From: Candidatus Poribacteria bacterium
GTDB taxonomy: Bacteria > Poribacteria > WGA-4E > WGA-3G
DNA: 64,000 nucleotides
NCBI GenBank assembly: GCA_965215265.1
Contig: OZ244048.1
Span: 2,432,001-2,496,000, forward strand
Reading direction: 5' to 3'
Shown: piece after piece, positions 1,897 through 62,594 of the stretch
How positions within the stretch are numbered: the first letter of the stretch is position 1
Layout of the letters: each line of letters starts with the position of its first letter
Notes under the pieces: model-generated
Databases searched by the model: none
Told to the model about the DNA's origin: nothing
What the model saw: the letters and a program-made list of their open reading frames with translations, nothing else
Made by a program: the position numbers and the translations under genes

Positions 1897-2049
1897 TTTA
1901 GAGTCAATACATCGAACAGCTCAGACGAGATTTATCTATAGATTGGCAGGATAAGGAATTCTTTGTCTGTCCATGAGACAAGAAAACCGAACCTGCCAAC
2001 ACACGAGTTATCATTATATAAACCTTGATGGTACGGAGATATACGAAAA
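1897..2049. repeat. Composite palindromic repeat: right half of family A with a nested family-B cassette
   Basis: CTCAGACGAGATTT at 1920; TTGGCAGG..CCTGCCAA at 1943-1999; terminus ATAAACCTTGATGGTACGGAGATATA is the reverse complement of the left ends at 8093, 8129 and 34896. Confidence 0.8.
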
Positions 2050-15510: not shown

Positions 15511-15546
15511 CCTGTGATGCCTTATCGCTACCGTATACAAAAAAGG

Positions 15547-22980: not shown

Positions 22981-23135
22981 ATGCTCGTTCGGACACTGTC
23001 GCTCGGGCATCAGCAGGCGGGGTTTTACCGGGCTCCGGCCCGTGCCGCGTATTGGGATGGCCGGAACGCCGTCGGGGAGCCGGTGGCGAGCGGTGTCTAT
23101 TTCTACACGCTCACCGCGAGGGATTTCACCGCAGA
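22981..23135 (+). pseudogene. Orphan FlgD/T9SS-CTD-like C-terminal domain fragment
   Basis: LVRTLSLGHQQAG...YWDGRNAVGEPVASGVYFYTLTA matches 54695-54850. Confidence 0.8.
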
Positions 23136-33512: not shown

Positions 33513-34890
33513 TTTTTTCCTTCAATGCTGCCAAGAATTGGTGTCCGACCTGACTGATATCGCCAGCACCAAGCGTGATAACGATATCCCCGGGGCGGGT
33601 TATTTGCGTGAGATATTCGGTAATTTCCTCGGTATCCGGCATGTAAATGACGTGTCGATGCCCGTGTGCCTGGATGGCTTGTGCTAAGTTTTCTGCTGTC
33701 ACGTTTTCAATAGGCGTTTCTCCAGCACCATAGATGGATGTGACAATCAGCACATCGGCTTGATAAAAAGAGCGGCAGAACTCATCTGCTAAGTCTCTGA
33801 CCCGCTGGTAGCGATGCGGTTGAAAGACTGCGACGACACGTCGTTTATAGCCTTCACGTGCGCCGCTGAGTGCTGCTTTTAGCTTCACTGGATTGTGGGC
33901 GTAATCGTCAACAACGATGATGTTATCTACTTCGCCAAGTACTTCAAAACGTCTGTGTACCCCTTGAAAGGATTCAAGGCTATCGCGAATCTGCTCGAAC
34001 GGAATGTCAAATTCAAGTCCCACGGCTATTGCGGCCAAAGAGTTAGCGATGTTATGTCGCCCTGGCATTTTGAGGTGTATGTCCCCGAGTCGCCCGTTAA
34101 CGCGTAGTTCTGGGGATGCGCTGACGGTGTAACGTGAGGTTGGCCCTTCAGCGTTAATTTCTTCTGCGATGAGGTCTGCGCCGAATTCAAGTCCGTAAGT
34201 GAGGTAGCGTTTTTCAATGCGTGGGATGAATTTTTGAATGTTTTCGCTATCTAAGCAAAGTACAGCCGTCCCGTAGAACGGAACTTTGTTAGCAAATTTG
34301 AGGAAGGTTTCGCCGATTTCGTCGACGCTATTGTAATAGTCAAGATGGTCAGCATCGACAGAAGTGATTACAGCGATTGTGGGATAGAACATCTCAATAG
34401 AACCGTATGCCTCGTCTGCTTCTACCACCATGACATCGCCCTGCCCGGTGTGTGCGTGAGTGCCATCGACGAGTTTACCGCCGACAACGACTGTTGGGTC
34501 CAAGCTCTTTAGGACGGCTGCTGTCATCGCTGTCGTGGTTGTTTTTCCGTGTGTTCCACTGACTGCGACACTGTAGCGCATCCGGGTAATCTCATTGAGC
34601 ATTTCGGCACCCCTGACGACAGGGATTTTCTGTGCGGCGGCGGCGAGAAGTTCTGGGTTATCCGGTGGAATTGCGGGGGACTTTACCACGACATCTGCCC
34701 CGTTAAGATTTGTTGTTGCATGGCTGTAGTATATCTTAGCTCCTTGTGCGCGTAGGTGCTCGGTTGTCTCTGAACACCGCAAATCGGAACCTGTTACCTG
34801 AAAACCGAGGTCGAGTAAGATTTCAGAGATACCGCTGAGCCCGGCACCGCCGATGCCGATAACATGGATATGTTTCGTTTTTCCAAACAT
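33478..34890 (-). CDS. murC: UDP-N-acetylmuramate--L-alanine ligase
   Basis: HVIGIGGAGLSG, GTHGKTTT, DDYAHNP, FQPHRY. Confidence 0.95.
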   Translation of the reverse strand: MFGKTKHIHVIGIGGAGLSGISEILLDLGFQVTGSDLRCSETTEHLRAQGAKIYYSHATTNLNGADVVVKSPAIPPDNPELLAAAAQKIPVVRGAEMLNEITRMRYSVAVSGTHGKTTTTAMTAAVLKSLDPTVVVGGKLVDGTHAHTGQGDVMVVEADEAYGSIEMFYPTIAVITSVDADHLDYYNSVDEIGETFLKFANKVPFYGTAVLCLDSENIQKFIPRIEKRYLTYGLEFGADLIAEEINAEGPTSRYTVSASPELRVNGRLGDIHLKMPGRHNIANSLAAIAVGLEFDIPFEQIRDSLESFQGVHRRFEVLGEVDNIIVVDDYAHNPVKLKAALSGAREGYKRRVVAVFQPHRYQRVRDLADEFCRSFYQADVLIVTSIYGAGETPIENVTAENLAQAIQAHGHRHVIYMPDTEEITEYLTQITRPGDIVITLGAGDISQVGHQFLAALKEKNESTSPGTQIA

Positions 34891-35095
34891 TTTTATATAT
34901 CTCCGTACCGTCAACGCTTATGATTTTGTTAAATCGTGTGTAAATCTCGTCGGAGGTTAACTAGGTATAGTCTTTAAAATCGTAGGCATAAACGGCTCAG
35001 ACGAGATTTGTAAGGGTTTTAACATTGCAGCAGCCTTGTTACGGGCTCCTGTAGACGAAAGACCTTGTTACGGGCTCCTGTAGACAAAAGAATCC
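34891..35095. repeat. Family A MITE-like element with a 29-bp internal tandem duplication
   Basis: TATATCTCCGTACCGTCAACG at 34896; inverted repeat 34942/34996; CCTTGTTACGGGCTCCTGTAGAC(g/a)AAAGA twice. Confidence 0.85.
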
Positions 35096-35096
35096 T

Positions 35097-36218
35097 TCAT
35101 AATTGTGCGAGAATAGCGTGGGCGATTTCCTCGCTTGCTTTCGGTTTTCCGATGGCCTGGCTTGCATTTGCCATCGTTTGATGGGTTTTAGCATCCGTGG
35201 TAATGCGGAGCAGGTGGCTGACGAGCTGGTCGGTTGTAAAGGTGCCTTGCTCTAGGACGATTGCAGCACCTGCGGCGGCGATTGTGCGCGCATTCAATAC
35301 CTGGTTGTTGCCGGTTTGTGCCGGTAAAGGAATGAAAATTGCAGGGATACCACATGCCGTTACCTCTGACACTGTCATTCCGCCGGCCCTACACACCATC
35401 AGATCGGTTATGCTGTAGACTTCTTCAACTGAATCAAAGAAGGGTTCGACTCGATGTGGTAAGCACGGGTTGAGTTTTTTATACGTCTCCTGAACGGTTT
35501 CTAAGTCTGCTGTGCCGGTTTGGTGTACGATTTGCAGGCAATCTAGCCCACGGCCCCCTGCTTGGCGTACTAAGTGCGGTAGACTCTCTATGAGACTCTG
35601 ATTGATTGCGTGCGCGCCTTGACTTCCTCCCATTACAAATACCGTTTTTCGATCTGGGCACAATCCGAGTTTTTGATAGGTAGCAGCGTTTCGTTGATAC
35701 GCCGTGATTGCGGGGCGAATGGGGTTGCCTGTCACGGAAACAATTTCTTTACGGAACTTCGCTGGAGCCGGTTCTAATGCTAGGTAGGCGGCTGCCGCCC
35801 AGCGTGCCAGTATTGCATTTGTCAAGCCAACAGAAGCGTTCTGTTCCTGGACAGCGATCGGAATCTTACAGAGGACCCCGGCAAAAAGGACGGGTCCGGA
35901 GACGTAACCGCCCGTGCCAACGACAAAATCTGGTGCGAGTTCTCTCATGTACCGCAACGATTGCTGCAGTCCGCACGCGGCTTTCCAGAGTACAGGAAAC
36001 CATTGGAAAGTTATCCGGCGGGGGAATCCTGCAACAGAGATGGGCAAAAAACGGAAGCCGTGCTGTGGCACAAGCGTTGCCTCCAAACGTCTGTCGCCCC
36101 CGATGAAAACGATATTGATGTTAGTTTCTAGGCGTTTCAAGGCTTGCGCAATGCCGATGGCAGGATAGATATGCCCACCGGTGCCGCCACCTGAAATCAC
36201 TATCGTGTGCTTTTTCAT
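35097..36218 (-). CDS. murG: MurG N-acetylglucosaminyltransferase
   Basis: GGGTGGHIYP, GTGGYVS, EQNA, GGSQGA. Confidence 0.95.
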   Translation of the reverse strand: MKKHTIVISGGGTGGHIYPAIGIAQALKRLETNINIVFIGGDRRLEATLVPQHGFRFLPISVAGFPRRITFQWFPVLWKAACGLQQSLRYMRELAPDFVVGTGGYVSGPVLFAGVLCKIPIAVQEQNASVGLTNAILARWAAAAYLALEPAPAKFRKEIVSVTGNPIRPAITAYQRNAATYQKLGLCPDRKTVFVMGGSQGAHAINQSLIESLPHLVRQAGGRGLDCLQIVHQTGTADLETVQETYKKLNPCLPHRVEPFFDSVEEVYSITDLMVCRAGGMTVSEVTACGIPAIFIPLPAQTGNNQVLNARTIAAAGAAIVLEQGTFTTDQLVSHLLRITTDAKTHQTMANASQAIGKPKASEEIAHAILAQL

Positions 36219-36251
36219 TTATAACACCTAAAACATTTCCAAACCCAGTGG

Positions 36252-36350
36252 GTGGCGAGTAAAAGGGAAGGGAAGTTCTCCCGGCAAGCGGGGAGGAATC
36301 CCCTTTCTTGTCTGTCCTGAAAGACAGACAAAGAATACCTAGCTCGCCAC
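36252..36350. repeat. Family B palindromic element (intergenic copy)
   Basis: GTGGCGAG...AAAGGGAAGGGAAGTTCTCCC...GGAGGAATCCCCTTTC..TCTGTCC...CTCGCCAC; reverse-complement match to 46039-46138. Confidence 0.85.
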
Positions 36351-36423
36351 TCTTTGACACAAGGAATTCACCCTGCAAAGCAGGGAGAACTTCTTAAAAG
36401 AGAAATTTCGACACTGGATTGTG

Positions 36424-37650
36424 TTACCTCTTCTTAGAACAGAAACGTGAAACATTGAGTAGAATACCGACGCTGACTAAGCTGAGAACAATTGATGAAC
36501 CGCCATAACTGATGAACGGTAACGTAATCCCCTTTGTGGGTAAAATGCCGGTGACAACGCCGATATTGATGAACGCTTGTAAACCGATCAGGATTGTCAT
36601 GCCGATAGCGAGCAACGAACCGAACAAATCTTCAACGTAGCGGGCGATGTGTAACCCACGCCACACAAACAACATGAAAAGGAGCGTTACGCTGGCGGTC
36701 CCGATGAATCCGAATTCTTCACCGAGGACGGCGAAAATGAAATCGGTGTGAGGATACGGCAGATGCACCACCTTGGCAACACTGTTATCAATCCCAACGC
36801 CGAAAAGCCCACCCCAGCCGAGTGCTTTGAGCGAATGTGATAATTGATAATTTGCCCCATCTGGAGATTTCCAGAGAGCGATGTAATCGATGAACCGTTG
36901 CAGCCGGTACGGGTTGCGAAGGACTAGGATACTGAGCGCGCCAATCCCGGCACCTGTGAGCATCACGGCATGCCAGATGCGAATGCCACCGACAAATAGT
37001 ACGATACACACCGTTACTGCTAAGAGGAGCGCAGACCCAAAGTCAGGCTGCTGTGCGACGAGCCCGAAAGCGGCACCTAAAATCAACAGATTCGGCAGAA
37101 TTCCGTTAAGGAAGCTTTTTGCTTTCTGTGGGTTCCGGCTGATAAATGTAGCTACATGGATGATGAGCGCGATTTTGGCGAATTCTACCGGTTGGAAATT
37201 GAACGGCACGCCGGGCATTCGAATCCAGCGGTTAAACCTACCGCCTTCCATCCCGCGTACGCTGACGCTGAAAAACGGCACGAATACTAACAGTAAAGCG
37301 ATGAACGCTACAATCAAAATCTTGGTGGAATGTTTCGCATAAAACTGATAAGGTACGGCAGACGCTATGAACATACCGATGAAGCCGATAACACAGGCAA
37401 TGACATGGACTCGCAAATATCGGTAACTGTCCCCGTTATATTCTCTTGAAGAGAGCAGATGGCCTGAGCTATACACCATCAAGATACCTACAGCGATGAG
37501 GCAAAATGTTAGTGCAATGAGAATCTTATCCCTTTTTCCACTCTGTTGAGTTTCGATGTTAGATGGCGTTGCCTCGGTAAAACGCCGCTGCCCAAGCGCG
37601 GCTCTACCTAAACGTGCAGGTGCTGTGGCGGACAGTCCTCGGGTTCTCAT
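36424..37650 (-). CDS. ftsW: Peptidoglycan glycosyltransferase FtsW
   Basis: GILMVYSS, FQPVEFAK, QPDFGS, LPYPHTDFIF, LPFISYGGSS. Confidence 0.93.
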   Translation of the reverse strand: MRTRGLSATAPARLGRAALGQRRFTEATPSNIETQQSGKRDKILIALTFCLIAVGILMVYSSGHLLSSREYNGDSYRYLRVHVIACVIGFIGMFIASAVPYQFYAKHSTKILIVAFIALLLVFVPFFSVSVRGMEGGRFNRWIRMPGVPFNFQPVEFAKIALIIHVATFISRNPQKAKSFLNGILPNLLILGAAFGLVAQQPDFGSALLLAVTVCIVLFVGGIRIWHAVMLTGAGIGALSILVLRNPYRLQRFIDYIALWKSPDGANYQLSHSLKALGWGGLFGVGIDNSVAKVVHLPYPHTDFIFAVLGEEFGFIGTASVTLLFMLFVWRGLHIARYVEDLFGSLLAIGMTILIGLQAFINIGVVTGILPTKGITLPFISYGGSSIVLSLVSVGILLNVSRFCSKKR

Positions 37651-37660
37651 GGCTACGTTT

Positions 37661-39187
37661 TTATGATTGAAGTGCATGAACAGCCTCTTTAAACGCGTTT
37701 CCGCGTGCTTTATAGTCGGTATACATATCAAAACTGGCATTTGCCGGTGACAGTAGCACTACATCGCCGGGTACGGCATGTTGGTAAGCAACCTGCACAG
37801 CTTCCGTCATAGTTTTGGCAGGCAAGATATCGGTGAACGCTGCTAGGGCGTTTTGGATACGTTGTGTATGTCCGCCGAGCATGACACCCTTTTTGACTTT
37901 CTCACGTACTAACCGAATAAGCGGCGTGTAGTCGTTTCCTTTATCGTAGCCGCCCATAATCAGTAGAACGTTTTTTCTGGCCTCGGATGAAGGTGATGAA
38001 GTTACTGATTCAAGTGCTGCTTTTACGGAATCTACATTCGTCGCTTTTGAGTCGTCAATGAATTGAACACCGTGCACCGTCCGAACCCGTTCGAAGGCAT
38101 GCTTGAAGGCAGGGTGTGCAAGGTCAAGCTGCTGGAGTGCTATCCGGATATGCTCAGCGGTTACGCCGTAAATTAATCCCACGGCGGCTGCCGCGAGTGT
38201 ATTCCGTATGTTGTGTGCCCCTGCGAGCGGAATATCCTTGACGTGACAGAGGAATTGTGGTTTTTGGCATGCGTTCTCAGTGTGCTCTGTCGATGTGCCA
38301 ATATTCCCAAAAATCTGCAGATTTCCGGTTTCATCGCGTTGGAGATAAGTTCCTTGTGTAGCGTATCGTGGCTGCTTCGGAACATTCTCACTACTACCCG
38401 TGTGCGTATGGCATTCTGTGGGCTGAAAATAGACGGTTCTTGCGGTAGTTAATGCTGCGAAGTCGGCCACCTGTTCATCGGAACTGTTTAGTACTATCCA
38501 ATCGGCTGCAGTTTGGTTGGCGCATATCTGCTGTTTCGCGCGGGTATAGGCACGCATGGTCCGATGCCTATCCAGATGGTCCGGTGATATGTTCAGTACA
38601 ACGCTCACTATCGGATGGAAGGTGACTGTGCTTTCTAATTGGAAGCTGCTGGCTTCAAGGACGACGATGTCTCTACTCGTCAGATTCTGAACTTCTGCCG
38701 ACAAAGGGAGCCCGATATTCCCTGCGACACAGACGTTTGTAAATCGCCGGCTCGTTTCGAGAATAGCCGCTGTCAAAAGTGTGGTTGTTGATTTTCCTTT
38801 TGTTCCAGTAATTGCGACAATGGGTGCTGGACAGAGGCTCGCGGCAACTTCCAATTCTCCGAGGATTGGGATGCGTTTTGCCCGTGCCTTGCAGAGAATC
38901 GGAATATCGAGGGGTACACCGGGGGACACAATAATCAGTGCTGCTGCTGCTATACATGTGTCTGGATGCCCCCCCAGGTAAAATTTCAGCGGGGGGTTTT
39001 GACTTGACGGGCTCGGCATCTGCTGTGTGAGCTGCTCAATTTCTGCGGATAGAGCCTCACGCTCGCGGGAATCTGTAACTGTCACGTTCGCGCCCAGTGC
39101 AAGCAGCAATTTTGCGATAGCCAACCCGCTGCGGTTCAATCCAAAAACGATGACCGGTTTCCCGGAGAAAATGTCCGCGTTTCGCAT
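37661..39187 (-). CDS. murD: UDP-N-acetylmuramoyl-L-alanine--D-glutamate ligase
   Basis: VSPG, TGTKGKSTT, EASSFQL, DDSKATN, LLSPANASFD. Confidence 0.95.
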   Translation of the reverse strand: MRNADIFSGKPVIVFGLNRSGLAIAKLLLALGANVTVTDSREREALSAEIEQLTQQMPSPSSQNPPLKFYLGGHPDTCIAAAALIIVSPGVPLDIPILCKARAKRIPILGELEVAASLCPAPIVAITGTKGKSTTTLLTAAILETSRRFTNVCVAGNIGLPLSAEVQNLTSRDIVVLEASSFQLESTVTFHPIVSVVLNISPDHLDRHRTMRAYTRAKQQICANQTAADWIVLNSSDEQVADFAALTTARTVYFQPTECHTHTGSSENVPKQPRYATQGTYLQRDETGNLQIFGNIGTSTEHTENACQKPQFLCHVKDIPLAGAHNIRNTLAAAAVGLIYGVTAEHIRIALQQLDLAHPAFKHAFERVRTVHGVQFIDDSKATNVDSVKAALESVTSSPSSEARKNVLLIMGGYDKGNDYTPLIRLVREKVKKGVMLGGHTQRIQNALAAFTDILPAKTMTEAVQVAYQHAVPGDVVLLSPANASFDMYTDYKARGNAFKEAVHALQS

Positions 39188-39191
39188 CGCT

Positions 39192-40307
39192 CTACCTCAA
39201 CTTCACCGTGCTGAGTGCAATCAGCACTAAAATTAACCCTATGATCCAGAACCTGATAACCACTTTGGATTCCTTCCATCCCGATAACAGAAAATGGTAG
39301 TGGAGGGGCGACATTTTGAAAACGCGTTTGCCAAAGGTGCGAAACGACCAGACCTGGATAATCACAGACAGTGCCTCTGCTACAAAGATTGCGCCAACAA
39401 TCACGAGCAGAAATTCCTGTTTTATGAGGAGTGCCACTGTCCCAAGTGTAGCACCGAGGACAAGCGAACCTGTATCGCCCATAAAGACTTGGGCGGGATG
39501 CGAGTTATACCATAAGAAGCCGAGCCCTGCCCCCACTAGCGCGGCACAAAAGATTGTCGCCACCTCACCGGCAATTGGGAAATGAAAAATGTTTAGATAA
39601 TTCGCAATCTGATGATGGCTCGTCATATAGCCGAGTACACCCAAGGTCCCTGCCACAAATATTGTGCACCCAATTGCTAAGCCGTCCATTCCATCTGTAA
39701 GATTTACGGCATTTGAGGTGCCGACGATGACCAGCGTCGCGAACGGAATAAACAGAATACCGAGTTCGGGTTGCACTGTTTTGAAAAAAGGGAGACTCAA
39801 CGAGGTGCGCGTTGCAACATCGCCGGTCACTATTGGGCCCGCCTGGTAAAGGTAGCTAGCGATAGCTAATGCACCGACTGTCTGGAGCCCTATCTTGTGC
39901 CAACCGCGGAGGCCTAAGGACTGTTGTTTGACTAATTTACTATAATCATCAAGGAAGCCGAGCCCCCCGAACCAGAGGATGGTTAAAATCATTAGATAGA
40001 AGAACGGCTGATCTAGCCGGCTCCAAAACACTATAGATACCAAAATGGAGACAATGATGAGGATGCCCCCCATTGTGGGCGTGCCTGCTTTGCTATCCCA
40101 CTCTTCCGATTTGGATTTCGGCCCCTCTTCGATGAGATGTTCGCCGATCCGCAGCTGCTTCAGCCGTGCTATCATGAACGGCCCTAAAACTAATGAGATG
40201 ACGAGTGCGGTTGCTGTTGCATAAATTGCCCGAAAACTGATATAGCGAAAGATATTGAATGGTGAAAACGTGTCAACCAAACTTTCAAAAAAGAGATGAT
40301 AAAACAT
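39192..40307 (-). CDS. mraY: Phospho-N-acetylmuramoyl-pentapeptide transferase
   Basis: KAGTPTMGG, GFLDD, NAVNLTDGMDGL, FMGDTGS. Confidence 0.95.
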   Translation of the reverse strand: MFYHLFFESLVDTFSPFNIFRYISFRAIYATATALVISLVLGPFMIARLKQLRIGEHLIEEGPKSKSEEWDSKAGTPTMGGILIIVSILVSIVFWSRLDQPFFYLMILTILWFGGLGFLDDYSKLVKQQSLGLRGWHKIGLQTVGALAIASYLYQAGPIVTGDVATRTSLSLPFFKTVQPELGILFIPFATLVIVGTSNAVNLTDGMDGLAIGCTIFVAGTLGVLGYMTSHHQIANYLNIFHFPIAGEVATIFCAALVGAGLGFLWYNSHPAQVFMGDTGSLVLGATLGTVALLIKQEFLLVIVGAIFVAEALSVIIQVWSFRTFGKRVFKMSPLHYHFLLSGWKESKVVIRFWIIGLILVLIALSTVKLR

Positions 40308-40378
40308 TTTATATGTCGCTTTCAAGTCCCGATTTAGCATCTAAAATTTCTTTAGACGCGTTCGGTCGGTTACTGGTT

Positions 40379-41662
40379 TTACAACTTTCCTTCGCCTTTC
40401 TTCAATTTAGTGAGCCTTGCCCCGGCATGGCTGAGCAAGTTTGTTGGATAAGAATATGTTAAGCTGTTTTTCTCCTGATGCACTGCGAACGCTAAATCAA
40501 TGAGTTTGGAGACGAGTTGCGGGAATTCGACACCGTCGTGTTCCCAAAGATAAAAACTGAATGAACCGGGAAGCGTGTTAATTTCATTGACGTAAACCTG
40601 CCCCGATTCATCCATTAAGAAATCGATTCGTGCAACCCCGGTGCAGTCCAACGCTTGAAAACTTTGCAACGCGAGCTCCTGAATATGTAACGTCAATTCT
40701 TCAGAAATGGGTGCAGGAATTTTCCGTGTCGCACCTGCCATACCGGACGGAGCGGGCGATGCACTACTACTATCCTTGCTTTGGGCTCCTGTTTCGACTG
40801 GATGGCTCGCTTCCACTGTATTATCTGAGGGCATCCCTTCATTTTCATGGAGGTATTTATCCTCAAAGGTTAGAAATGCCGCTTCTGTCATCGGTTGTTC
40901 ACAAACCGAAGGGGTCAATTGGTGTGTTCCCATCACGGCGCAGTTAATTTCAGCTGGCTTTTTGACGGCTTGTTCTACCAGGATTCTGCGGCAATACTGC
41001 CCGGCGAGCTGGACAGCGGAGAGGAGTTCTGTGTTATTTGTTGCTCGACTGACGCCGATACTAGAGCCACTGAGAGCAGGTTTGACAAAAACCGGGTACC
41101 CCAGGGTGGTTTTGAGCTGCTTAAGAATGTTCGGTCTAAACTTGTCCCATTGGTACATTGTCCACGACAGATAGGGGACAATAGGAATCTGATTCTCCGT
41201 GAGAACAGCCTTCATCATGATTTTATCCATGCCGACAGCGGAGCCGACAACCCCGGCACCGACATAAGGCAGATTCATTAGTTCTAGGAGTCCTTGAAGC
41301 GTCCCATCTTCACCGTGTGAGCCGTGTATCGCCGGAAATACGACATCAACAGATAGTGTTATCGGTTTTGCGCGTCGGAACCACTTTGTCTTTTGTTTTG
41401 GAAGGACGGTGAACTTTGGTACTGTGCCGAATTCAACAGTGACAGTTTCAAAATCGGAAGCGTGTGGCAGCTGACCGTCTGTGAAGGTGCTCAGTTCGCG
41501 CAGTTTCTCTCCGGTTAGCCACTCGCCACTCTTTGTGACGTAAATCGGAATCACGTTATGCGTCTCTTCCAAAGCAGCACAGACCTGCTGCGCTGTTATG
41601 ATAGATACTTCGTGTTCTGGCGAACGTCCGCCAAAAACAACGGCTACATTATGTCGTTGCAT
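40379..41662 (-). CDS. ddl: D-alanine--D-alanine ligase
   Basis: FGGRSPEHEVS, HGSHGEDG, GSSIG, EINTLPG; RBS AGGAAGG. Confidence 0.92.
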   Translation of the reverse strand: MQRHNVAVVFGGRSPEHEVSIITAQQVCAALEETHNVIPIYVTKSGEWLTGEKLRELSTFTDGQLPHASDFETVTVEFGTVPKFTVLPKQKTKWFRRAKPITLSVDVVFPAIHGSHGEDGTLQGLLELMNLPYVGAGVVGSAVGMDKIMMKAVLTENQIPIVPYLSWTMYQWDKFRPNILKQLKTTLGYPVFVKPALSGSSIGVSRATNNTELLSAVQLAGQYCRRILVEQAVKKPAEINCAVMGTHQLTPSVCEQPMTEAAFLTFEDKYLHENEGMPSDNTVEASHPVETGAQSKDSSSASPAPSGMAGATRKIPAPISEELTLHIQELALQSFQALDCTGVARIDFLMDESGQVYVNEINTLPGSFSFYLWEHDGVEFPQLVSKLIDLAFAVHQEKNSLTYSYPTNLLSHAGARLTKLKKGEGKL

Positions 41663-41791
41663 TGTCCTGCTAACCTTCCTTTCGGTAGCGTTATTGGTTT
41701 GCACACGCAATCTAGACAGATGTCCCATCTGCAGGCTCCAAGAGATGATTGATGCGCGCTCAGGCAAAGGCGTTGAGAGCAAGTCCGAAAC

Positions 41792-43420
41792 CTACTCGTT
41801 GTATGTATCGGGCAAATCATTCTCAAAAAGGACTATATCCCCGGGCTTCAGCAGCTTTTTCAAATATTGTGTGACTTCAGTTAAGTTAAGCGCAATAATG
41901 AGTTGTTCCCGGGGGTAATTAGCACTGTTCAATCCGTCTACAATCGGGGCAGTTCTTGCGGGTCCGACTAAAATAACCAGGTCACACACTTCGGCTGCTT
42001 GTATCCCGAAACGTCTGTTGGAAGCGTATTCCTTCTCGCCGAGTTCTACCATGCCGGGTGTCACCAAAACCTTTTTGCTATGTGCGTTTTCCCTGCTCTG
42101 GGCTATATCGTTAAGGACTTCCAGTGCGGCTTTTGCGCCAACCGGATTGGCATTGAAACTATCGTCAATAATGGTTACGCCGCCTGCGCCGGCTGTCAAT
42201 TGCAAGCGGTGGGGAACGGGTTCCAAATTTGCCACAGCGGCAGACATCTCATCTAACGTCATCCCGCATTCGGCTGCGACAGTCATCGCCGCGAGGATGT
42301 TGGAGACGTTATGTCTGCCTAAAAGTGGGGTTCGGATTTCAACGTTCTGACTGCGATTGTGGACAGTAAATGCCAGCCCCTTATCGGTTTGTTGAATGTT
42401 CGTTGCAGTCAGCGTATTTGTAGTTTGAGTAGCTATTGGATTGATGCCGTACCGGAGTACCTTTCTGTTTTCAGTGGTGTCTGCGAGTTTTGCGCAGATG
42501 TCGTTGTCGCAGTTGAAGACAGCAATTCCATCCGGTGGGAGCGATTCAATGAGCTCATATTTAGCTTTAGTGATATTTTCAACGTTTTTAAATCGCTCCA
42601 GATGCTGTAGTCCGACAGCGGTGAGTATACCGACTTCAGGCCTTACCAGCTTGCATAATTCTTTGATGTCGCCGCGCCGGTAAGCCCCCATTTCAACGAT
42701 AAATATCTCGTGTTCTTCATTCAATGTGCCACGGATGACTTTGCAGATGCCCATCGGTGTGTTGTAGCTATCCGGTGTCATCAAAGTGTTAAATTTTTGC
42801 GACAGAATCTGTTGTAAAATCGCTTTGGTACTCGTTTTGCCGTAGCTCCCGGTAATCCCGATGACTTTCGGGCGCAATGTTTTTATCCGTCTTTTGGCGG
42901 AAAGGAGGTATCCCGAATTGATGGTGCGTTCCAGTGGATAGATAAGCAGGTTGGCGATTGTTAAATTAATCGCCGCTACTTCACTGAAAAGAAAGAGCCC
43001 GACCCGCCACGGATGCGTCTTAGCAACAAGGACAAGGACTACAGAGAGTCCTACAAGTAAACAGAGCGAAAAGCCTAGCAACCGTTTTGCTCGCGCTGTG
43101 TAAACGAGCGGTTTCTTTGTCTCTACCTTTTTCTTTTCGAAAAGAAGATAAACCTGCAAGGTCCCCCATGCGATGCACAGGGGTGCAAAGAACCATGTCT
43201 GCTGATATTGTGGGTATATAAATGTGATACCGAGTAGGCAGCTGATGGCGAGAATCTCTTTGATGTCGAAGCAGTTTTTCAAATGTGCGCCCATCCACTT
43301 CAAGTAACGCCTTGTTTTATAACCATCCAATTGAAGGATATGGAGTCCACCGTTTGTTCGGACGATTGCGCGAAGCAGACAGGTAGCGATTACGAGATAA
43401 AACAGTGTATTATATATCAT
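41792..43420 (-). CDS. murF: MurF ligase with an N-terminal multi-TM extension
   Basis: ~170-aa hydrophobic N-terminus (LQLDGYK, PLVYTARAKR); GITGSYGKTS, EMGA, DDSFNANP, ENDLPD. Confidence 0.88.
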   Translation of the reverse strand: MIYNTLFYLVIATCLLRAIVRTNGGLHILQLDGYKTRRYLKWMGAHLKNCFDIKEILAISCLLGITFIYPQYQQTWFFAPLCIAWGTLQVYLLFEKKKVETKKPLVYTARAKRLLGFSLCLLVGLSVVLVLVAKTHPWRVGLFLFSEVAAINLTIANLLIYPLERTINSGYLLSAKRRIKTLRPKVIGITGSYGKTSTKAILQQILSQKFNTLMTPDSYNTPMGICKVIRGTLNEEHEIFIVEMGAYRRGDIKELCKLVRPEVGILTAVGLQHLERFKNVENITKAKYELIESLPPDGIAVFNCDNDICAKLADTTENRKVLRYGINPIATQTTNTLTATNIQQTDKGLAFTVHNRSQNVEIRTPLLGRHNVSNILAAMTVAAECGMTLDEMSAAVANLEPVPHRLQLTAGAGGVTIIDDSFNANPVGAKAALEVLNDIAQSRENAHSKKVLVTPGMVELGEKEYASNRRFGIQAAEVCDLVILVGPARTAPIVDGLNSANYPREQLIIALNLTEVTQYLKKLLKPGDIVLFENDLPDTYNE

Positions 43421-43433
43421 CTTTTTGTATAGA

Positions 43434-43491
43434 GTTGCGAGATAGGTATTCTTTTTCTGTCCATGAGAAAAGATAACCTTTTACTCGTAAC
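43434..43491. repeat. Short family B cassette upstream of murF
   Basis: GTTGCGAGATAGGTATTCTTTTTCTGTCCATGAGA...CTCGTAAC matches 1943-1999 and the reverse complement of 36320-36350. Confidence 0.7.
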
Positions 43492-43571
43492 CCACTGGGA
43501 ATTGGAAAGGCTCGCGAATCAAGATAGCATGCCTAGATGGCATTCGCCGGGCTGAAACACAAGCACCGATT

Positions 43572-44456
43572 TCACCGTTGGTTCAAGTTGCTCTGATGGG
43601 AACCGACCTCTTCACGCATAGAAGAGGCTGAGTTGATTTGAGATGATAGGCGTTGCGGCTTCTCCTCCTGAATTCCTAGGAAACTCGCCAAAATCCTGCA
43701 AAATTGCGGGAATCTATCGAGGTATGAGAAGTGCCCTGCGCCCTTTAGGACAACGAGTCCGGCATCCGGTATTTCCTTTTCCATGATTTTTCCGTAAGAG
43801 ACAGGCGTATCTGTATCAGCCTCACCCCAGATTAGCAGTGTGGGTGCGCCTATCTGTGCGAGTAGCGGCCGCAAGTCTTCGTTGACGACCTTTACAAGCG
43901 TTCCGCGCATCGGACCTGCGTTCTTATAATCTGTGGAGCCCATGCGCTGTGACACTCTGTTTGCGATGTGTGCGCCGTATTTCCCGCATCGTCCGACCAG
44001 CCGTCCAATCTTTGCGATGCTAACCCGTAGATAATATCGTGCTGTCCGCGGTGGTTTTATGCCTGCACTATCTACAAGGATGAGTTTATCGACCTTTTCA
44101 GGGCGTTTCGCCCCGATGATAATTGAAATTCGTCCGCCAAAAGAGTGTCCGATGACGTGTGCTTTTGAGATGTTAAGTTTCTCAAAAAAATCGGTGACAC
44201 AGCGTGCGTAATCGCTGGTGCCCCAGGCTGTAGGCGGTGTCTCACTGTTCCCGAATCCCGGCAGATCGAGTACGTAGACTTTATGGGATGCTGCCAGCCA
44301 TTCGAAAAGGGGTTTAAAGCTAGCGGCTTCGGCACCCCATCCGTGCAGCAGTACGACCGCCTTACCTTCGCCGGCGACTTGATAGGCGATTTTGAGATTA
44401 TTAATTTCTATTTTTTCGTATCTGTTCTGAAACCTGTCGGCGTGTTGCGCGGGCAA
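43572..44456 (-). CDS. Alpha/beta-fold hydrolase
   Basis: LLHGWG, DLPGFG, GHSFGG nucleophile elbow, WGEAD, GAGH. Confidence 0.9.
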   Translation of the reverse strand: MPAQHADRFQNRYEKIEINNLKIAYQVAGEGKAVVLLHGWGAEAASFKPLFEWLAASHKVYVLDLPGFGNSETPPTAWGTSDYARCVTDFFEKLNISKAHVIGHSFGGRISIIIGAKRPEKVDKLILVDSAGIKPPRTARYYLRVSIAKIGRLVGRCGKYGAHIANRVSQRMGSTDYKNAGPMRGTLVKVVNEDLRPLLAQIGAPTLLIWGEADTDTPVSYGKIMEKEIPDAGLVVLKGAGHFSYLDRFPQFCRILASFLGIQEEKPQRLSSQINSASSMREEVGSHQSNLNQR

Positions 44457-44469
44457 GACAAGCCTCCAT

Positions 44470-45951
44470 TTATCCGGCTGTTTTTTGGTTTTGTGTTAAG
44501 GCTTCGGCTGCCACCTGCCTATCGTCAAAGGGGTATCTTTTGCCGTGGATTTCTTGATAATCCTCGTGCCCCTTTCCGGCAATGACGACAACATCTCCGG
44601 GCTGCGCGATAGAAATTGCGTGCTGGATTGCCTCCCGTCTCTGCGAAATAGACACATAGTCGGTATCATGTGGTAAATTTAACACAATCTGTGCGATAAT
44701 ACCGTCCGGATCTTCGGTGCGCGGATTGTCCGATGTCACCACAGTATAGTCTGAGAGTCGTGCCGAAATTTCGCCCATCTGTGGCCGTTTTCCGGCATCT
44801 CTATCTCCTCCACAGCCGAAAACAGAGATAAGTCTGTTTTCAGTCATGCCTCGTGCTGCCGTTAGGACATTTTCCAAGCCATTTGGGGTATGTGCATAAT
44901 CGACGATAACGGCGAACTGCTGCCCGCTATCAACTAACTCAAACCGTCCTGGTACGACGGTTGTAGAGAGCCCTTCTTGAATTGCGTGGATAGGGCACTC
45001 GTACCGAAGTGCGACGCCGATCGCTGCCATAGCGTTATACAGGTTATATTCACCCAACAATCGGATCTGGGCAGGAAATTCGCCATCTGGGGTAACGGCC
45101 GTAAAAGTTAATCGGTTGCGAGAAAGTTTCACTGCTTTCACGCCAATTTCGGTGTCCTCGTGTCGCTGCCGGCCGTATTTCAATATCTGGCGTGTGCCGA
45201 CAACGGAGGCGATATGTGCTGATACCGGTGCGTCGTTGTTGAGAATCGCAGCGCCTTCGTCAGTGAGCTGCGCAAATAGCATTAATTTCGCTTTTAGGTA
45301 TTCCTCCATCGTTCCGTGGTAATCGAGATGGTCTTGCGTTAGATTCGTGAACACAGCGGTATCAAACGTAAGGCCGGCTAACCGCTGCTGGGCAAGTCCT
45401 TGCGAGGATGTCTCCATCACTACATATACTATGCCGGCATCAACAAATTGTTTGAAGAGTGCGTGTAGTGCAAACGCATCAGGTGTTGTGAGAGCTGCCG
45501 GCAGAAATGCGGTTTCGTACTGGTGTCCAACTGTTCCGAGGAGTGCTGCTTTTCGGTGATTCGCGGTTAGAATTGCGTGGATGAGATGTGCGGTTGAGGT
45601 TTTCCCATTCGTGCCGGTAATCCCGATGAGTTTCAGTCGTTCTGCCGGATTTCCGTGCCAATTTGCGGCGAGCAACGCATTCGCGTACCGTCCATTCGGC
45701 GTTTGCAAGTAGGTAACAGCGGCTTTGTCTAATTCAGAGGGCGGTTTTTTCTCGCCGATAACTGCTGTTGCTCCGTTTTCAACGGCTGCATGGATATACT
45801 GATGTCCATCAACCGTAATACCCGGGTAGCAGATAAAAAGGTTACCGGGCGTAACCTTTCGGCTATCGGTGGTGATGCCGGTAATCTGTCGGTTGAGAGT
45901 GCCCGTAATTGCGATAATGTCAACCCTGTGCAGAAGATTTTGTAGTTGCAT
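44470..45951 (-). CDS. murE: MurE, meso-DAP-type
   Basis: GITGTNGKTS, VDYAHTP, GCGGDRD, DNPR, GKGHE. Confidence 0.95.
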   Translation of the reverse strand: MQLQNLLHRVDIIAITGTLNRQITGITTDSRKVTPGNLFICYPGITVDGHQYIHAAVENGATAVIGEKKPPSELDKAAVTYLQTPNGRYANALLAANWHGNPAERLKLIGITGTNGKTSTAHLIHAILTANHRKAALLGTVGHQYETAFLPAALTTPDAFALHALFKQFVDAGIVYVVMETSSQGLAQQRLAGLTFDTAVFTNLTQDHLDYHGTMEEYLKAKLMLFAQLTDEGAAILNNDAPVSAHIASVVGTRQILKYGRQRHEDTEIGVKAVKLSRNRLTFTAVTPDGEFPAQIRLLGEYNLYNAMAAIGVALRYECPIHAIQEGLSTTVVPGRFELVDSGQQFAVIVDYAHTPNGLENVLTAARGMTENRLISVFGCGGDRDAGKRPQMGEISARLSDYTVVTSDNPRTEDPDGIIAQIVLNLPHDTDYVSISQRREAIQHAISIAQPGDVVVIAGKGHEDYQEIHGKRYPFDDRQVAAEALTQNQKTAG

Positions 45952-45988
45952 CAGTTTTCTCTGGGATAGGCAACGAATTGCCGTTCCG

Positions 45989-47881
45989 TTACAGGCCTCC
46001 TTCTTTCACAGTGTAGTCAGTCGCCGGGATGTGTTCAGGTGGCGGGGTTCGGTTTTCTTTCTCTGTCCTCGAGGACAGAGAGGAAAGGGGATTCCTCCGC
46101 GCTTGCGGGGAGAACTTCCCTTCCCTTTTCCTCGCCATCTCCGAGACGAAGAATTCGGTTTGCTTGAAGTATTGCATTGCCTGTTCAGCAATGTTTTTGA
46201 AAAGGGGTGCGGCAATTTGGCCACTAAACCGTGCCCCCTTCGGTTCATCAAGCATCACGAGAATGGAAATCTGCGGGTTCTCAGCGGGCAAGAATCCCAT
46301 AAACGACATGGTCTCCTTGCCGTTTACATAGCCGATGCCTTTTTCAGCCTTTTGCGCGGTGCCTGTTTTTCCTGCGACGCGATAGCCTTCGACCTGTCCG
46401 CGCCTGCCGCTGCCGTTTTCAACAACGCCAACCAGTATTTCTCTCATCTGTCTTGCGACTTCCGGTCGCAGCACTCGCCGTACCTCAATCGGGTATATCC
46501 TTTTGAGTACATGCCCTTGGTTGTCAAGAATTTCTTTTGTGATATAGGGCCGGAGCAGCTTGCCCCCGGTTGCAATAACATTCAAGGCATTTACCATCTG
46601 GAGGGGTGTGACAAGGATACCTTGCCCAAATGGTACTGCGCCAAGTGAATTGACATTCCATCGTTTCACCATGCTGAGCTCTCCGCTGTGCTCATAAGGC
46701 AGATCAATCCCGGTGCTTCTGCCAAACCCATACTTTTCGATATATTCCATGAAAATTTCAGGTCCAATTTTTTGAACGATTTTAATCATGCCGATATTGC
46801 TTGATTTGTGGAGCACTTCCGCCAAAGTTAACCAGCCTTTTGGGGAAACATCTTTGATAACGCGCTGCCTACTAATGCGAAACCGTCCGTTCTCACAGAA
46901 GACAGATGTCGCAGGAGTCATCTCTGCTTCATTGAGCGCAGCAGAGGCACCGACAATTTTAAAAATAGACCCGGGTTCATACGCGTACCAGACAGCGAGG
47001 TTCCGTTTTGCTGCCTCATTCGTGTCTGCATAAGCGTTGGGGGTGAATGTGGGATAGCTCGCCATCGCTAAGACCTCTGCTGTTTGAGAAGCCAAGACGA
47101 CGGCTGTCCCTCTGGGCGCATTCCACTTTTGACAGGCTGCGGCCAATTCCTTCTCTGCAATATACTGAATGTACTCGTCAAGTGTGAGGACGACGTTATA
47201 GCCAACATCCTTCCAAGCATCATCCGCGTTTAAGAGTGTATTGACATATCCAGCTTGCGTTGGATGCACGCTGGTATCTGTGGGATATGGTGAGTGTAAT
47301 TGGAGTTTCCCACCTGTTATCCCCAGCAGCACGTCGTTGTATTCGTATTCAATGCCCTCTCCTATATTTTCGGTGTTGACATGTCCAATCACGTGGGATG
47401 CTAACTGCCCTTTGGGATATGACCTTTTTTGCTCTATTGAGTAAGTTATGCCGTGAAATTTTTTCTTCAATGCGCGAATTTCAGAGAGCAATTGGTAGTC
47501 AACGCCGCGTTTCAAAGACACAAAACGCTTGTTCTTGCGCTTGAGCTGTGCGAGCAGTTGCGTCGCTGGCATGTCTAAAATGGGAGCGAGCTGGTTCGCC
47601 ACTACCGCCGGGTCAGTTTTCAGGTATGCCGGGTCTGCTGAGACGTTGAGCGTGCGCCGACTCAAGCCTAAGATGGTCTGCTGCCGGTCAAGAATTTTCC
47701 CACGTTTTACCTCGGATACCTTTCGAGAAAGTGCCTTGGCACGGGGCCTGCTTCTGTCTGAGGCATCGCCGGTTACCTGCAACGTCAAGAGTTTGCCAAT
47801 GAGTATCAGAAAGCATACCTGAAGTCCAATCAGTACGACAACAAGGCGTGGTATAGATAGAAGTCTTTTTTTATTTTTCAT
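45989..47881 (-). CDS. ftsI: Class B penicillin-binding protein FtsI
   Basis: KRGKILDR, EPGSIFK (SxxK), SSN, KTGTAQ. Confidence 0.92.
   Translation of the reverse strand: MKNKKRLLSIPRLVVVLIGLQVCFLILIGKLLTLQVTGDASDRSRPRAKALSRKVSEVKRGKILDRQQTILGLSRRTLNVSADPAYLKTDPAVVANQLAPILDMPATQLLAQLKRKNKRFVSLKRGVDYQLLSEIRALKKKFHGITYSIEQKRSYPKGQLASHVIGHVNTENIGEGIEYEYNDVLLGITGGKLQLHSPYPTDTSVHPTQAGYVNTLLNADDAWKDVGYNVVLTLDEYIQYIAEKELAAACQKWNAPRGTAVVLASQTAEVLAMASYPTFTPNAYADTNEAAKRNLAVWYAYEPGSIFKIVGASAALNEAEMTPATSVFCENGRFRISRQRVIKDVSPKGWLTLAEVLHKSSNIGMIKIVQKIGPEIFMEYIEKYGFGRSTGIDLPYEHSGELSMVKRWNVNSLGAVPFGQGILVTPLQMVNALNVIATGGKLLRPYITKEILDNQGHVLKRIYPIEVRRVLRPEVARQMREILVGVVENGSGRRGQVEGYRVAGKTGTAQKAEKGIGYVNGKETMSFMGFLPAENPQISILVMLDEPKGARFSGQIAAPLFKNIAEQAMQYFKQTEFFVSEMARKREGKFSPQARRNPLSSLSSRTEKENRTPPPEHIPATDYTVKEGGL
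46039..46138. repeat. Family B element inside the ftsI coding 3' end
   Basis: Reverse complement of 36252-36350; encodes MARKREGKFSPQARRNPLSSLSSRTEKENRTPP. Confidence 0.85.
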
Positions 47882-48194
47882 AAATTCTGTATGCCCCTTC
47901 CGTGGGTTCAACCAGTCCCAATTCTGCTGCGATGTGCCGGATCCGTTCAACGGAGGTTAATGCAGCCTCCTCCAATTCAAGTTGATGAATTTCATCTTGA
48001 ATGTAGTGTTGCTGTCTCTGATAGGCAGGTTTCCTTTGCAATGCGACATTCTTTGCGTACGATGAGAACCAGACACTGGCGAGAAAGATGCAGAAGGATA
48101 ACCCGAAAACGATATAGACGTACGGAAAGTGTTTTTTCGGTGCGGTTTCCGCTGTTTTGGCTTTGCGGGTTGTATATTGGTGTGAGTTCCGCAT
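47871..48194 (-). CDS. ftsL: Cell division protein FtsL-like
   Basis: TM plus coiled coil, ERIRHIAAELGL; lies between rsmH and ftsI. Confidence 0.75.
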   Translation of the reverse strand: MRNSHQYTTRKAKTAETAPKKHFPYVYIVFGLSFCIFLASVWFSSYAKNVALQRKPAYQRQQHYIQDEIHQLELEEAALTSVERIRHIAAELGLVEPTEGAYRIYEK

Positions 48195-48363
48195 AGTTTG
48201 TCCTGGCTAACGCAGTACATCTTCTACCTAATAATAAATTGCCTGCTGACACGTCTGCGCTTTTTGTTATTCTAAATTCTAAACGTTAAATGTGGTAATT
48301 AAGATACACTTTTTTATCAAAGAACGTGCGAGGCTCCGCTTGTTAAAACAGATAAGTATCTGT

Positions 48364-49329
48364 TCAGGCTGGTTCGATTCCGTCAAGGATTTTTCTTGCT
48401 GCTCTTAGCTTAGCACTCCGTGCGCGTGGATTTTGTTGAATTTCAATTTGCGCTGGACGCACGGGGCGTTTGGTTAGAATCTGTAATGATGGGCGATGTT
48501 CACAAATACAGACAGGCGTTTTTGGGGGACAAAGACATGCACGTGCACAGCGCTGGAACCGTCTCTTCACGATCCGGTCCTCAAGCGAGTGGAAGGTAAT
48601 AACACAAAGGATGCCGCCCGGTTTTAACAACGGGACTGCTGCATCTAAGACAGTGGCGAGGTTATCTAATTCACTGTTGACGTAAATCCGCAGTGCTTGG
48701 AAGACCCGCGTGGCCGGATGGATTCTGGCTGTCCGCTGTCGGTTAGCACGTGCTGAGAGTGCAGAGATGACAATATCAGCGAGATGTGCAGTCGTTTTTA
48801 TCGGTGTGTGCTGTCTCGCTTGGACGATGTACTGGGCAACTCGTTTGGCAAACCGTTCTTCTCCATACCGTCTGAAAATATCTGTAAGGGTATCCAGCGG
48901 CTTCTCATTGACGACCTGTTCTGCTGAGGGCGATTGCCGTGTATCCATACGCATGTCCAAAGGCCCGGTGTGATTGAAACTAAAACCGCGGCTGGGTGTC
49001 TCTAATTGTAAAGATGACACCCCTAAATCGAGCAAGATGCCATCGACACCGGTGATTGAATTGTTTTCTAGTAATGACTGAAGTTGGGCAAAGTTGCCAT
49101 GGATGAAGCGTGCCCGGTCTTTAAAGTGCTGCAGGCGTTCGCGGGCGATGGCTAATGCTGATTCATCAACATCAATTCCGATGAGTCGCCCGTTGGGCGC
49201 GGATTTTTCCAAAATTGCGGTACTATGCCCCCCCAATCCTACGGTTGCATCTATGTAAGTGCCGCCCGGTTTGGGTTTAAGCACCTCAAGTACTTTCTCG
49301 CGTAAGACCGGGATATGTTGTGTCGACAT
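48364..49329 (-). CDS. rsmH: 16S rRNA m4C1402 methyltransferase
   Basis: HIPVL, DATVGLGGH, DLGVSS, FHSLED, NPRARSAKLR. Confidence 0.96.
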   Translation of the reverse strand: MSTQHIPVLREKVLEVLKPKPGGTYIDATVGLGGHSTAILEKSAPNGRLIGIDVDESALAIARERLQHFKDRARFIHGNFAQLQSLLENNSITGVDGILLDLGVSSLQLETPSRGFSFNHTGPLDMRMDTRQSPSAEQVVNEKPLDTLTDIFRRYGEERFAKRVAQYIVQARQHTPIKTTAHLADIVISALSARANRQRTARIHPATRVFQALRIYVNSELDNLATVLDAAVPLLKPGGILCVITFHSLEDRIVKRRFQRCARACLCPPKTPVCICEHRPSLQILTKRPVRPAQIEIQQNPRARSAKLRAARKILDGIEPA

Positions 49330-53800: not shown

Positions 53801-54875
53801 CCCCTGGTACAGAGTATACAACGATATCCCCTGGCAGCGGCTTTGCGTTTTCAACAGATGCGACAAGCGTTCGCGTTGGTGATACCTTCACTGTTCACAT
53901 CAGTGCAGAAAAGGTTACCGATTTAGCCGGGTGGCAATTTGAGGTAGCATTTTCCCCTGAGATACTTGAAGCGGTTGAAGTCAGCGAGGGGGATTTGCTG
54001 AAGAAAGGTGGTGGGACGACCTTCTTCCAGCGAGGCACGATTGACAATACAACAGGTAAAATTGCGGGGCTCAGCACTGCGTTGCTTTCCGAAAAAGGTG
54101 TCAGCGGCACCGGGAGACTGCTGTCAGTGGTATTCTCCGCGAAGGGGGCGGCGACAGTGAACTCACACTGTCTAACTTCCAACTTGGTGATAGCACCGGT
54201 GAGGTGATTGCAGCCGGTGTGCCAAATCTTACCATTACTGTAGAGTCTAAACCGACCTGGGATGTGAATGCCGATGGGCAGGTGAGCGTTCTGGACATGA
54301 TTCAGGTGGCGCGCTACTTAGGCGAGGATGCGGCTGCCAACCCGCAAGCGGATGTGAATCGCGATGGGAAGATTAACGTCCAAGATCTCATCCTTGTGGC
54401 ACAACACATGGGCGAATCCACCACTGCCGCCGCGCCTTTTGCTGGGGTGAGAGACAGGGTGGAACTAACTCCAGAGATAGTTCGGGCATGGATAACACAA
54501 GCACAGGCAGAAAATGATGGCTCACTCGCTTTCCAACAAGGGATTGCGAATCTCCAAAGTCTTTTCGCCTCGCTGCTGCCTGAAGAAACGGTGCTGCTGG
54601 CGAATTATCCGAACCCGTTCAACCCAGAGACGTGGATACCGTATCAGTTGTCGGACGCTGCGGATGTAAGTTTGACTGTCTATTCTGCGCGGGGGCTGGT
54701 GGTTCGGCAGTTGTCGTTGGGGCATAAGGCGGCGGGTCTGTATGAGAGCCGGAGTCGTGCGGTGTATTGGGACGGTAAAAATGAACAGGGTGAGCCTGTG
54801 GCGAGTGGTGTCTATTTCTACACGCTCACGGCAGGTGATTTCACTGCGACGCGTAAAATGCTGCTAAGGAAGTAG
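50806..54875 (+). CDS. Secreted multidomain protein (c-type cytochrome, internalin-like LRRs, cohesin, dockerin, FlgD/CTD), split by a frameshift near 54144
   Basis: CLNCH and CIGCH; ISDLSPLAGLT repeats; DLAGWQF cohesin; DVNADG/DVNRDG dockerin; NYPNPFNPETWIPY; ORFs 50806..54207 and 54204..54875. Confidence 0.85.
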
Positions 54876-57432: not shown

Positions 57433-57482
57433 GGTTGGGTATCTCCGTAGTTATCCGTCCGCACGAAGTTTAAACATGAAAA

Positions 57483-57827
57483 CTTGAGTTGAGAATAAGC
57501 CGGATTCTGTATACGATGATCATTCATCTGGGATTAATGTTACCATTAACCTCAAGCGGTTACCGGGGGACGAGGCGGGCACACCCTTAACTATCCCCAC
57601 TTTACCTTGCTCCGGATGGGGTTTACCGAGCTCCATAAGTCACCTTATGGACTGGTGCGCTTTTACCGCACCGTTTCACCTGTACACCGCGTGCGATGTA
57701 GTCTACTTTCTGTTGCACTTTCCATAGCGTTGCCGCTCCTGGGTGTTACCCAGCATCCTGCCCGTTGGAGTCCGGACTTTCCTCATCCCAAGAAAGGGTT
57801 GGGACGCGACCATCTACTCAACTCAAG
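57483..57827 (-). ncRNA. rnpB: RNase P RNA (type A)
   Basis: Minus strand shows GAGGAAAGTCCGG, AGTGCAACAGAAA, GGTAAACCCC, ACAGAATCCGGCTTA; terminal P1 pairing CTTGAGTTGAG/CTCAACTCAAG. Confidence 0.95.
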
Positions 57828-61167: not shown

Positions 61168-61418
61168 ACGTATGAAAAGGGAGAAATAAAAAGTCATATT
61201 ATTATAACAGAAAACACGTAATTTTTCAAACAAATTTTCAACAATTTAACTTTTCAACGTTGCACGTATGAAAAGGGAGAAATAAAAAGTCATATTATTA
61301 TAACAGAAAACACGTAATTTTTCAAACAAATTTTCAACAATTTAACTTTTCAACGTTGTACGAAAGGGAGAAATAAATAATCCTATACGTATTGTAAAAG
61401 AAAATACGTAATTTTTTG
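61168..61418 (-). repeat. 96-bp tandem duplication (plus a degenerate third copy) carrying the nrdJ promoter
   Basis: Copies start at 61168 and 61264; each carries minus-strand TTGAAA-N17-TATAAT. Confidence 0.9.
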
Positions 61419-62580: not shown

Positions 62581-62594
62581 CTTAATACCTCCAT

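Follow-up and report, generated by a model that had tools for sequence, protein, structure and literature searches.

A palindromic repeat lies in frame within the C-terminal tail of FtsI in a member of Candidatus Poribacteria

We analyzed a 64,000-nt stretch of a Candidatus Poribacteria bacterium genome (assembly GCA_965215265.1, contig OZ244048.1, positions 2,432,001 to 2,496,000 of the forward strand; GTDB lineage Bacteria; Poribacteria; WGA-4E; WGA-3G), referred to here as the window, in which the cell division gene ftsI carries a copy of a palindromic repeat in frame within its coding sequence. The gene lies on the minus strand at 45989..47881 and encodes 630 residues plus a stop, with the ATG at 47881 placed as in a database protein, P0002. 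The longest open reading frame (ORF) at this site (45989..47950, minus strand) starts at a TTG at 47950 and encodes 653 residues. Based on its PBP_dimer (PF03717, 1.5e-18) and Transpeptidase (PF00905, 1.3e-73) domains, the product is a class B penicillin-binding protein (PBP), PBP3, and solved FtsI and SpoVD structures match it at up to E = 1e-71. Read along the minus strand, the surrounding division and cell wall (dcw) operon comprises rsmH, an ftsL-sized ORF, ftsI, murE, an alpha/beta-hydrolase gene, a murF-like gene, ddl, mraY, murD, ftsW, murG, murC, ftsQ, and ftsA. The ftsI gene is essential in model organisms, and its essentiality here is carried over from them.

The repeat copy within ftsI, copy B, is of a long form and occupies 46039..46138 on the minus strand. 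It traverses the ftsI frame as 33 codons (46138-46040) without a stop, and its translation is the peptide that an initial annotation of this DNA had quoted. That annotation took the element for the very end of FtsI, with the stop right after it; we found instead that 16 more codons, native to the gene (45992..46039, minus strand), precede the TAA at 45989-45991, and copy B thus ends 48 nt before the stop. The last six native residues, VKEGGL (45992-46009), close the C-terminal motif that poribacterial FtsI proteins have in common. The codons of the motif contain a Shine-Dalgarno-like AAGGAGG, located 45 nt before the murE ATG and too far away to serve murE. The murE gene itself (44470..45951, minus strand) begins with an ATG 37 nt past the ftsI stop and ∼90 nt past the element.

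At the protein level, the insert covers residues 605-637 of the 653-residue ORF (582-614 of the 630-residue form). It starts 16 codons after the transpeptidase domain, which ends at residue 588 of 653 by Pfam, near position 46187. Homology stops at or before residue 573 of the 630-residue form in 57 of the 58 matched PDB sequences; one PBP2X alignment runs to residue 587, past the insert start at residue 582. The added segment is thus situated just beyond the folded catalytic domain. Its residues are hydrophilic and basic (grand average of hydropathy, −1.7; net charge, +6) and would face the periplasm if this protein has the topology of other FtsI proteins. An AlphaFold2 prediction of the 630-residue protein (43 aligned sequences) gave a mean predicted local distance difference test score of 42.8, too poor to judge tail disorder, and was left unused.

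Copy B belongs to a family with four related copies in the window. The second long form, copy A (36252..36350, plus strand), lies in the spacer between ftsW and murG and runs opposite to transcription, unlike copy B and the short copy S2. The initial annotation had described 46039-46138 as the reverse complement of 36252-36350, and pairwise alignment contains every common block it listed, with the two copies alike over 87 to 99 nt at 89% identity. The same relationship emerged from a repeat search of the window as an 87-nt inverted repeat in which 36253-36339 pairs with 46051-46137 (89% complementary), and from blastn-short within the window as an 83-nt match at 89.2% identity (E = 3.6e-22). 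Flanks common to copies A and S2 widen copy A to ∼36234-36365, and weak A-like similarity may widen copy B to 46027-46156.

Two copies are of a short form. S2 (43421..43507, minus strand) lies in the spacer that separates the alpha/beta-hydrolase gene from murF, its end abutting the murF ATG at 43420, and aligns as copy A minus a 41-nt inner hairpin, with both outer flanks common to the two. S1 (1934..1998, minus strand, 65 nt) is nested within a member of another palindromic repeat family. Three repeat pairs in the window repeat search support the short copies, as does a 25-nt blastn-short match at 92% identity (E = 2.9e-4). Shorter relatives proposed earlier at 1943 and 43434 therefore hold up, but a third, tentatively placed at 7365, does not: it has no nhmmer match at E ≤ 50 and shares only a hairpin shape and similar end words with the family. 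An nhmmer profile built from the four copies, whose own scores hold by construction, revealed no fifth copy in the 64 kb at E < 1, reverse-strand palindrome echoes aside.

Some features adjoining these sites deserve mention in their own right. A stand-alone hairpin with 8-nt inverted ends occupies 7368-7428, directly after the stop of a glycogen-phosphorylase-like gene; it has end words similar to those of the elements but an unrelated interior, and it may be a terminator or another type of repeat. Around S2, the region 41792-44456 includes the alpha/beta-hydrolase gene between murE and the murF-like gene. The murF-like ORF (542 residues) has a Mur ligase middle domain from residue 189 on, after a hydrophobic N-terminal part, and the exact ending of S2 at its ATG leaves no obvious ribosome-binding site.

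Three of the four copies (A, B, and S2) are found where two genes of the dcw operon meet, and S1 lies outside this operon. [quoted passage not shown] Copy A is closed by stops in four of six frames and open in two; in the frame equivalent to that of ftsI, its second hairpin has a TGA in the loop. Copy B is free of stops in all six frames. All six frames were likewise open in 581 of 5,000 dinucleotide shuffles of copy B, and the ftsI frame was open in 73% of shuffles. The openness of copy B thus follows from its composition and is no evidence of design for coding.

Both long copies are predicted to fold into a Y-shaped three-way junction closed by terminal inverted repeats, and the short copies into one long hairpin. 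All four copies are closed, in the predicted structure, by inverted end words of 8 to 9 nt, which correspond to the terminal inverted repeats of MITEs. The plus strand of copy A has a predicted folding energy of −56.3 kcal/mol (z = −6.2, with none of 200 shuffles as stable), and the ftsI sense strand of copy B has −50.9 kcal/mol (z = −4.4). Comparing A with B, 3 of 55 paired columns differ, all with pairing kept and including one G-C to C-G swap, versus 11 of 44 unpaired columns (Fisher p = 0.008; these statistics come from two sequences, with the structure derived from the same two). Because a MAFFT alignment of the four copies does not match long and short forms by structure, RNAalifold derived only a weak consensus from it (−1.7 kcal/mol). 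When 35000-48500 was scanned for promoters and terminators, promoter-like sites occurred at chance level, and some terminator-like matches fell inside the elements merely as parts of their hairpins.

The surroundings of S1 record an insertion. The second repeat family, also palindromic and intergenic, is represented at 1897-1933 plus 1999-2050, at 8088-8257, and at 34889-35024; one of its copies lies at the murG-murC junction. Its 14-nt core occurs five times in the window against 0.08 occurrences expected, and in every full copy the core appears in both orientations, forming a hairpin of ∼90 nt. S1 splits one member of this family, and two other members (8166-8187 and 34934-34955) are uninterrupted at the same point. 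Given these intact sister copies, a single insertion of S1 is simpler than two precise deletions.

We compared the C-terminal ends of FtsI relatives at the protein level, using the 120 top-ranking of 859 homologues at E ≤ 0.001; where a source name is given among these 120, it is Candidatus Poribacteria. One of the listed relatives, an FtsI of 77% identity, is encoded on a 4.0-Mb contig. A conserved C-terminal motif ends 107 of the 120 listed homologues, and the window protein keeps this motif in frame after the insert. The 13 listed homologues that lack it consist of 11 with tails of 8 to 15 residues and 2 with long tails and a diverged ending. This pattern of conservation suggests that the extreme C terminus matters in this phylum. 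Measured from the end of the conserved QTEFF in 118 homologues (window protein and P0002 left out), tails span 8 to 39 residues overall and 26 to 31 residues in 105 of the 118; in the window protein and P0002, the tail is 52 residues. Since the window protein retains QTEFF upstream of the insert and the motif in frame downstream of it, the stop of the ancestral ORF was already the present one, and the length changed on net by a multiple of three.

Insert words were found in only 1 of the 120 listed homologues, namely, P0002; the other 119 have insert-free tails, which leaves the peptide without the conservation in repeat-free taxa that would have spoken against a repeat origin. P0002 has 630 residues, of which 3 are not the same as in the window protein, one of them within the insert. 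The longest contig of its assembly is 31,444 nt, shorter than the window, identifying it as the product of a near-identical second assembly. A premature true stop hidden by a sequence error had been raised as a possible objection. P0002 shares the 630-residue structure and has a substitution of its own within the insert, which speaks against a sequencing error or artifact.

Searches beyond the window returned little. The 18-nt core common to both long copies occurs at 19 loci in 185,579 representative genomes, each match 18 to 20 nt long and none from Poribacteria; because ∼17 chance matches are expected in 596 Gb searched on both strands, we attribute these loci to chance. A distant-mode search of plasmid and phage collections with the element gave no match. 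Scanning the whole window against Rfam at gathering thresholds yielded RNase P alone and no family for the element, and permissive Rfam scans of both long copies reached at best 21 bits, compared with a gathering score of 50. The insert peptide had one match among 1.84 billion representatives, an unrelated repeat protein (P0123), in a library that holds one protein per 50%-identity cluster and so hides insert-bearing members of ordinary clusters. A 41-residue peptide in the ftsI frame searched against 5.8 billion clusters (proteins of at least 73 residues) retrieved P0002 alone. An alignment of the two long copies, translated in an opposite-strand frame without stops in either, yielded nothing from 270 candidates in the 5.8 billion clusters. 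[quoted passage not shown] On these searches, the insert peptide does not appear to be a conserved feature of FtsI, and the element may be confined to a narrow lineage, as far as such weak blanks can tell.

The explanation we favor, and regard as probable, is that a lineage-specific hairpin repeat landed in frame in the length-variable tail of ftsI, is read through, and is tolerated. Small non-coding hairpin repeats resembling MITEs or repetitive extragenic palindromes (REPs) would populate the transcribed spacers of this Poribacteria genome, in a Y-shaped long form of ∼100 to 120 nt and a single-hairpin short form of ∼65 to 90 nt. One long copy would have inserted in the linker between the last transpeptidase helix and the conserved C-terminal motif. 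Ribosomes would read through this copy, which brings a net multiple of three and no stop in the frame used, and would add ∼30 hydrophilic, basic residues to the periplasmic tail before the native C terminus resumes. The element presumably moves by transposition, and its open frame suggests that the insert is translated. The initial annotation had proposed an independent repeat family that creates new protein sequence in ftsI, a proposal that holds at the level of sequence, with four related copies and one of them in frame in an ORF.

Most likely, the insert is a passenger that this dispensable and evolutionarily labile region tolerates, and not a new functional domain. Supporting this idea, relatives have tails down to 8 residues, and 13 of the 120 do without the motif. 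The insert is presumably neutral.

Several observations weigh against this explanation. All four known copies lie within one 64-kb window, and the 45 window ORFs that we scanned contain no transposase domain or parent insertion sequence and no RAYT gene. The S1 junctions allow at most 1 nt of duplication, short of the target duplication that marks MITEs, and sequence inspection found no flanking direct repeats at A, B, or S2. The remainder of the native FtsI tail is 19 residues, ∼10 residues shorter than in most relatives, with the site resolved at the protein level. The explanation also presumes that the tail is kept in the mature protein. Finally, the location of three of the four copies at junctions of one operon, together with the conserved stems, would fit a role at the RNA level as well.

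Retention of the tail bears on a variant that would add to the passenger explanation and is not exclusive of it: the insert may be encoded but trimmed off with the tail after export, leaving no lasting new protein. The FtsI protein of Escherichia coli loses its last residues to the Prc protease. Trimming would suit an insert beyond the folded domain and a tail as labile as that of the relatives (8 to 39 residues, with the motif missing from 13 of 120), but conservation of the motif in 107 of the 120 listed relatives, and its preservation in frame here, speak against it, and we consider this outcome unlikely.

A role at the RNA level is somewhat less likely again. The elements would then be functional structures of the dcw mRNA that tune expression as processing sites or exonuclease barriers, in the manner of REPs, bacterial interspersed mosaic elements, or enterobacterial repetitive intergenic consensus (ERIC) sequences, at the ftsI/murE, hydrolase/murF, and ftsW/murG junctions; the ftsI copy would be kept for its RNA fold, with translation as a side effect. 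The clustering of three of four copies at cistron junctions of one operon is consistent with this idea, as are the very stable folds predicted on the transcribed strand, the A-B substitutions that avoid stems or keep pairing, and the ending of the ftsI copy merely 48 nt before the stop. However, copy A is oriented opposite to B and S2 relative to transcription, S1 lies outside the operon and nested in another repeat, and Rfam holds no match (best 21 bits versus gathering score 50). The stem statistics are drawn from the same two sequences that define the structure, and conserved stems would equally be expected of a DNA hairpin needed for transposition.

We give still less credence to a combination of the two levels, in which the lineage would use a structured module in its division operon and the ftsI copy would be under double constraint as an RNA or DNA hairpin and as codons. 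The hairpin would act in processing, stability, or ribosome pacing just before murE, and the codons would supply a basic, flexible spacer that moves the C-terminal motif away from the catalytic domain. The preservation of the stems fits this notion, as does the absence from the ftsI copy of the loop stop found in its sister copy A. If true, selection would act at both levels on a repeat within an essential gene, which would be rare.

It is very improbable that the direction was reversed, with the 33 codons being ancestral ftsI sequence and the intergenic copies deriving from a duplicated ftsI 3′ end. Two long copies in the window give no direction by themselves, but 119 of the 120 listed homologues lack the segment, short forms without the inner hairpin occur at two further sites, and S1 is nested in an unrelated repeat; furthermore, copy A is closed in four of six frames, with its stop in the ftsI-equivalent frame. 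Hardest of all to credit is an assembly or sequencing artifact that joined the repeat into ftsI or removed the true stop: repeats are common misassembly sites in metagenome-assembled genomes, but P0002, an independent database protein, has the same 630-residue structure with its own substitution within the insert, and the native motif continues in frame after the element.

The phenomenon of a palindromic repeat turned coding is already known, with in-frame MITE fusions that include 33-residue C-terminal additions, and the repeat in ftsI implies no new mechanism. Passages of PMC10969869 call it not unusual for intragenic MITEs to make in-frame fusions and say that Rickettsia palindromic elements (RPEs) do so at high frequency. 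As portrayed in the same passages, RPEs are small palindromic repeats of ∼100 to 150 bp that occur both between genes and in frame within them, where the encoded peptide occupies a position compatible with the protein fold, and the repeat studied here resembles them in this way. However, RPEs belong to Rickettsia, in another phylum, and are an analogue and not a relative, compared by description and not by sequence. RPEs are found in dozens of genes per genome, whereas here one intragenic copy is known and its peptide appears in no other protein in the searches above. In addition, RPE families encode a conserved peptide, whereas in sister copy A the corresponding frame is interrupted by a stop.

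A comparable case is QMITE2, which supplies the last 33 residues of EnhC in Coxiella burnetii Dugway, according to part of PMC5896051. As that part describes it, QMITE2 is a hairpin-forming MITE in frame at the 3′ end of enhC, and its other copies are mostly in 3′ untranslated regions. The same text places the enhC stop directly after the element, so that the MITE forms a new C terminus, whereas copy B is read through and followed by 16 native codons. It also reports direct repeats (target duplications) at QMITEs; none were seen here.

Among enterobacterial repeats, ERIC sequences fused to the 3′ ends of genes are described in portions of PMC2759123, including one that makes the Erwinia carotovora amidase ECA3499 35 residues longer than its homologues. 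ERIC and the repeats RU-1 to RU-3 are presented there as imperfect palindromes of ∼103 to 168 bp located in transcribed spacers, with some in-frame 3′ fusions outside the conserved domain, a likeness by description that links unrelated taxa. In those portions, the fusions usually replace the native stop, unlike copy B, which is embedded in coding sequence. REPs and REPINs are likewise short extragenic palindromes of transcribed spacers, with hairpins kept by compensatory change and without target duplication. They are mobilized by RAYTs, Y1 transposases of IS200/IS605-like type whose genes often have the repeats on their flanks. According to PMC3733652, GTAG or CGTC tags at one end of a palindrome of 20 to 40 nt mark most REPs; neither tag is present in the end words of the four copies. 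The long form also departs from REPs in being a three-way junction and not a simple hairpin or hairpin pair.

With this locus, an uncultivated phylum, the Poribacteria, and a core divisome enzyme join the cases in which palindromic repeats have turned coding. Because the motif resumes in frame after the insert, the boundaries and frame of the insertion can be read without experiments. For annotation, the locus indicates that an FtsI of outlying length in a metagenome-assembled genome is not necessarily an error.

The window holds further repeats and features. A 322-nt inverted repeat (22316-22637 and 62590-62911) has arms of 88% identity located 40 kb apart; one arm overlaps an ORF without a Pfam match, and the other is located immediately upstream of a WD40-repeat gene, whose start it overlaps. 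Tandem repeats at 61168-61359, 22608-22739, and 63243-63377 include a 96-nt intergenic duplication at 99% identity, as well as coding repeats with a 12-nt unit in 8 overlapping copies and a 27-nt unit in 4 copies. A 148-nt spacer palindrome at 15396-15543 has 74-nt arms that are 70% complementary, and two adjacent 37-nt direct repeats, each palindromic, are next to a type I restriction-modification specificity gene (19521-19597). A 59-nt coding repeat (23074-23132 and 54789-54847) is common to two genes at 86% identity; the copy at 54789-54847 belongs to a dockerin-domain protein, where it lies within the FlgD Ig-like C-terminal domain, and the repeat may represent a shared C-terminal sorting domain. 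Additionally, a bacterial RNase P RNA of class A is encoded at 57481-57825 on the minus strand (296 bits), the sole Rfam family above threshold in the window.

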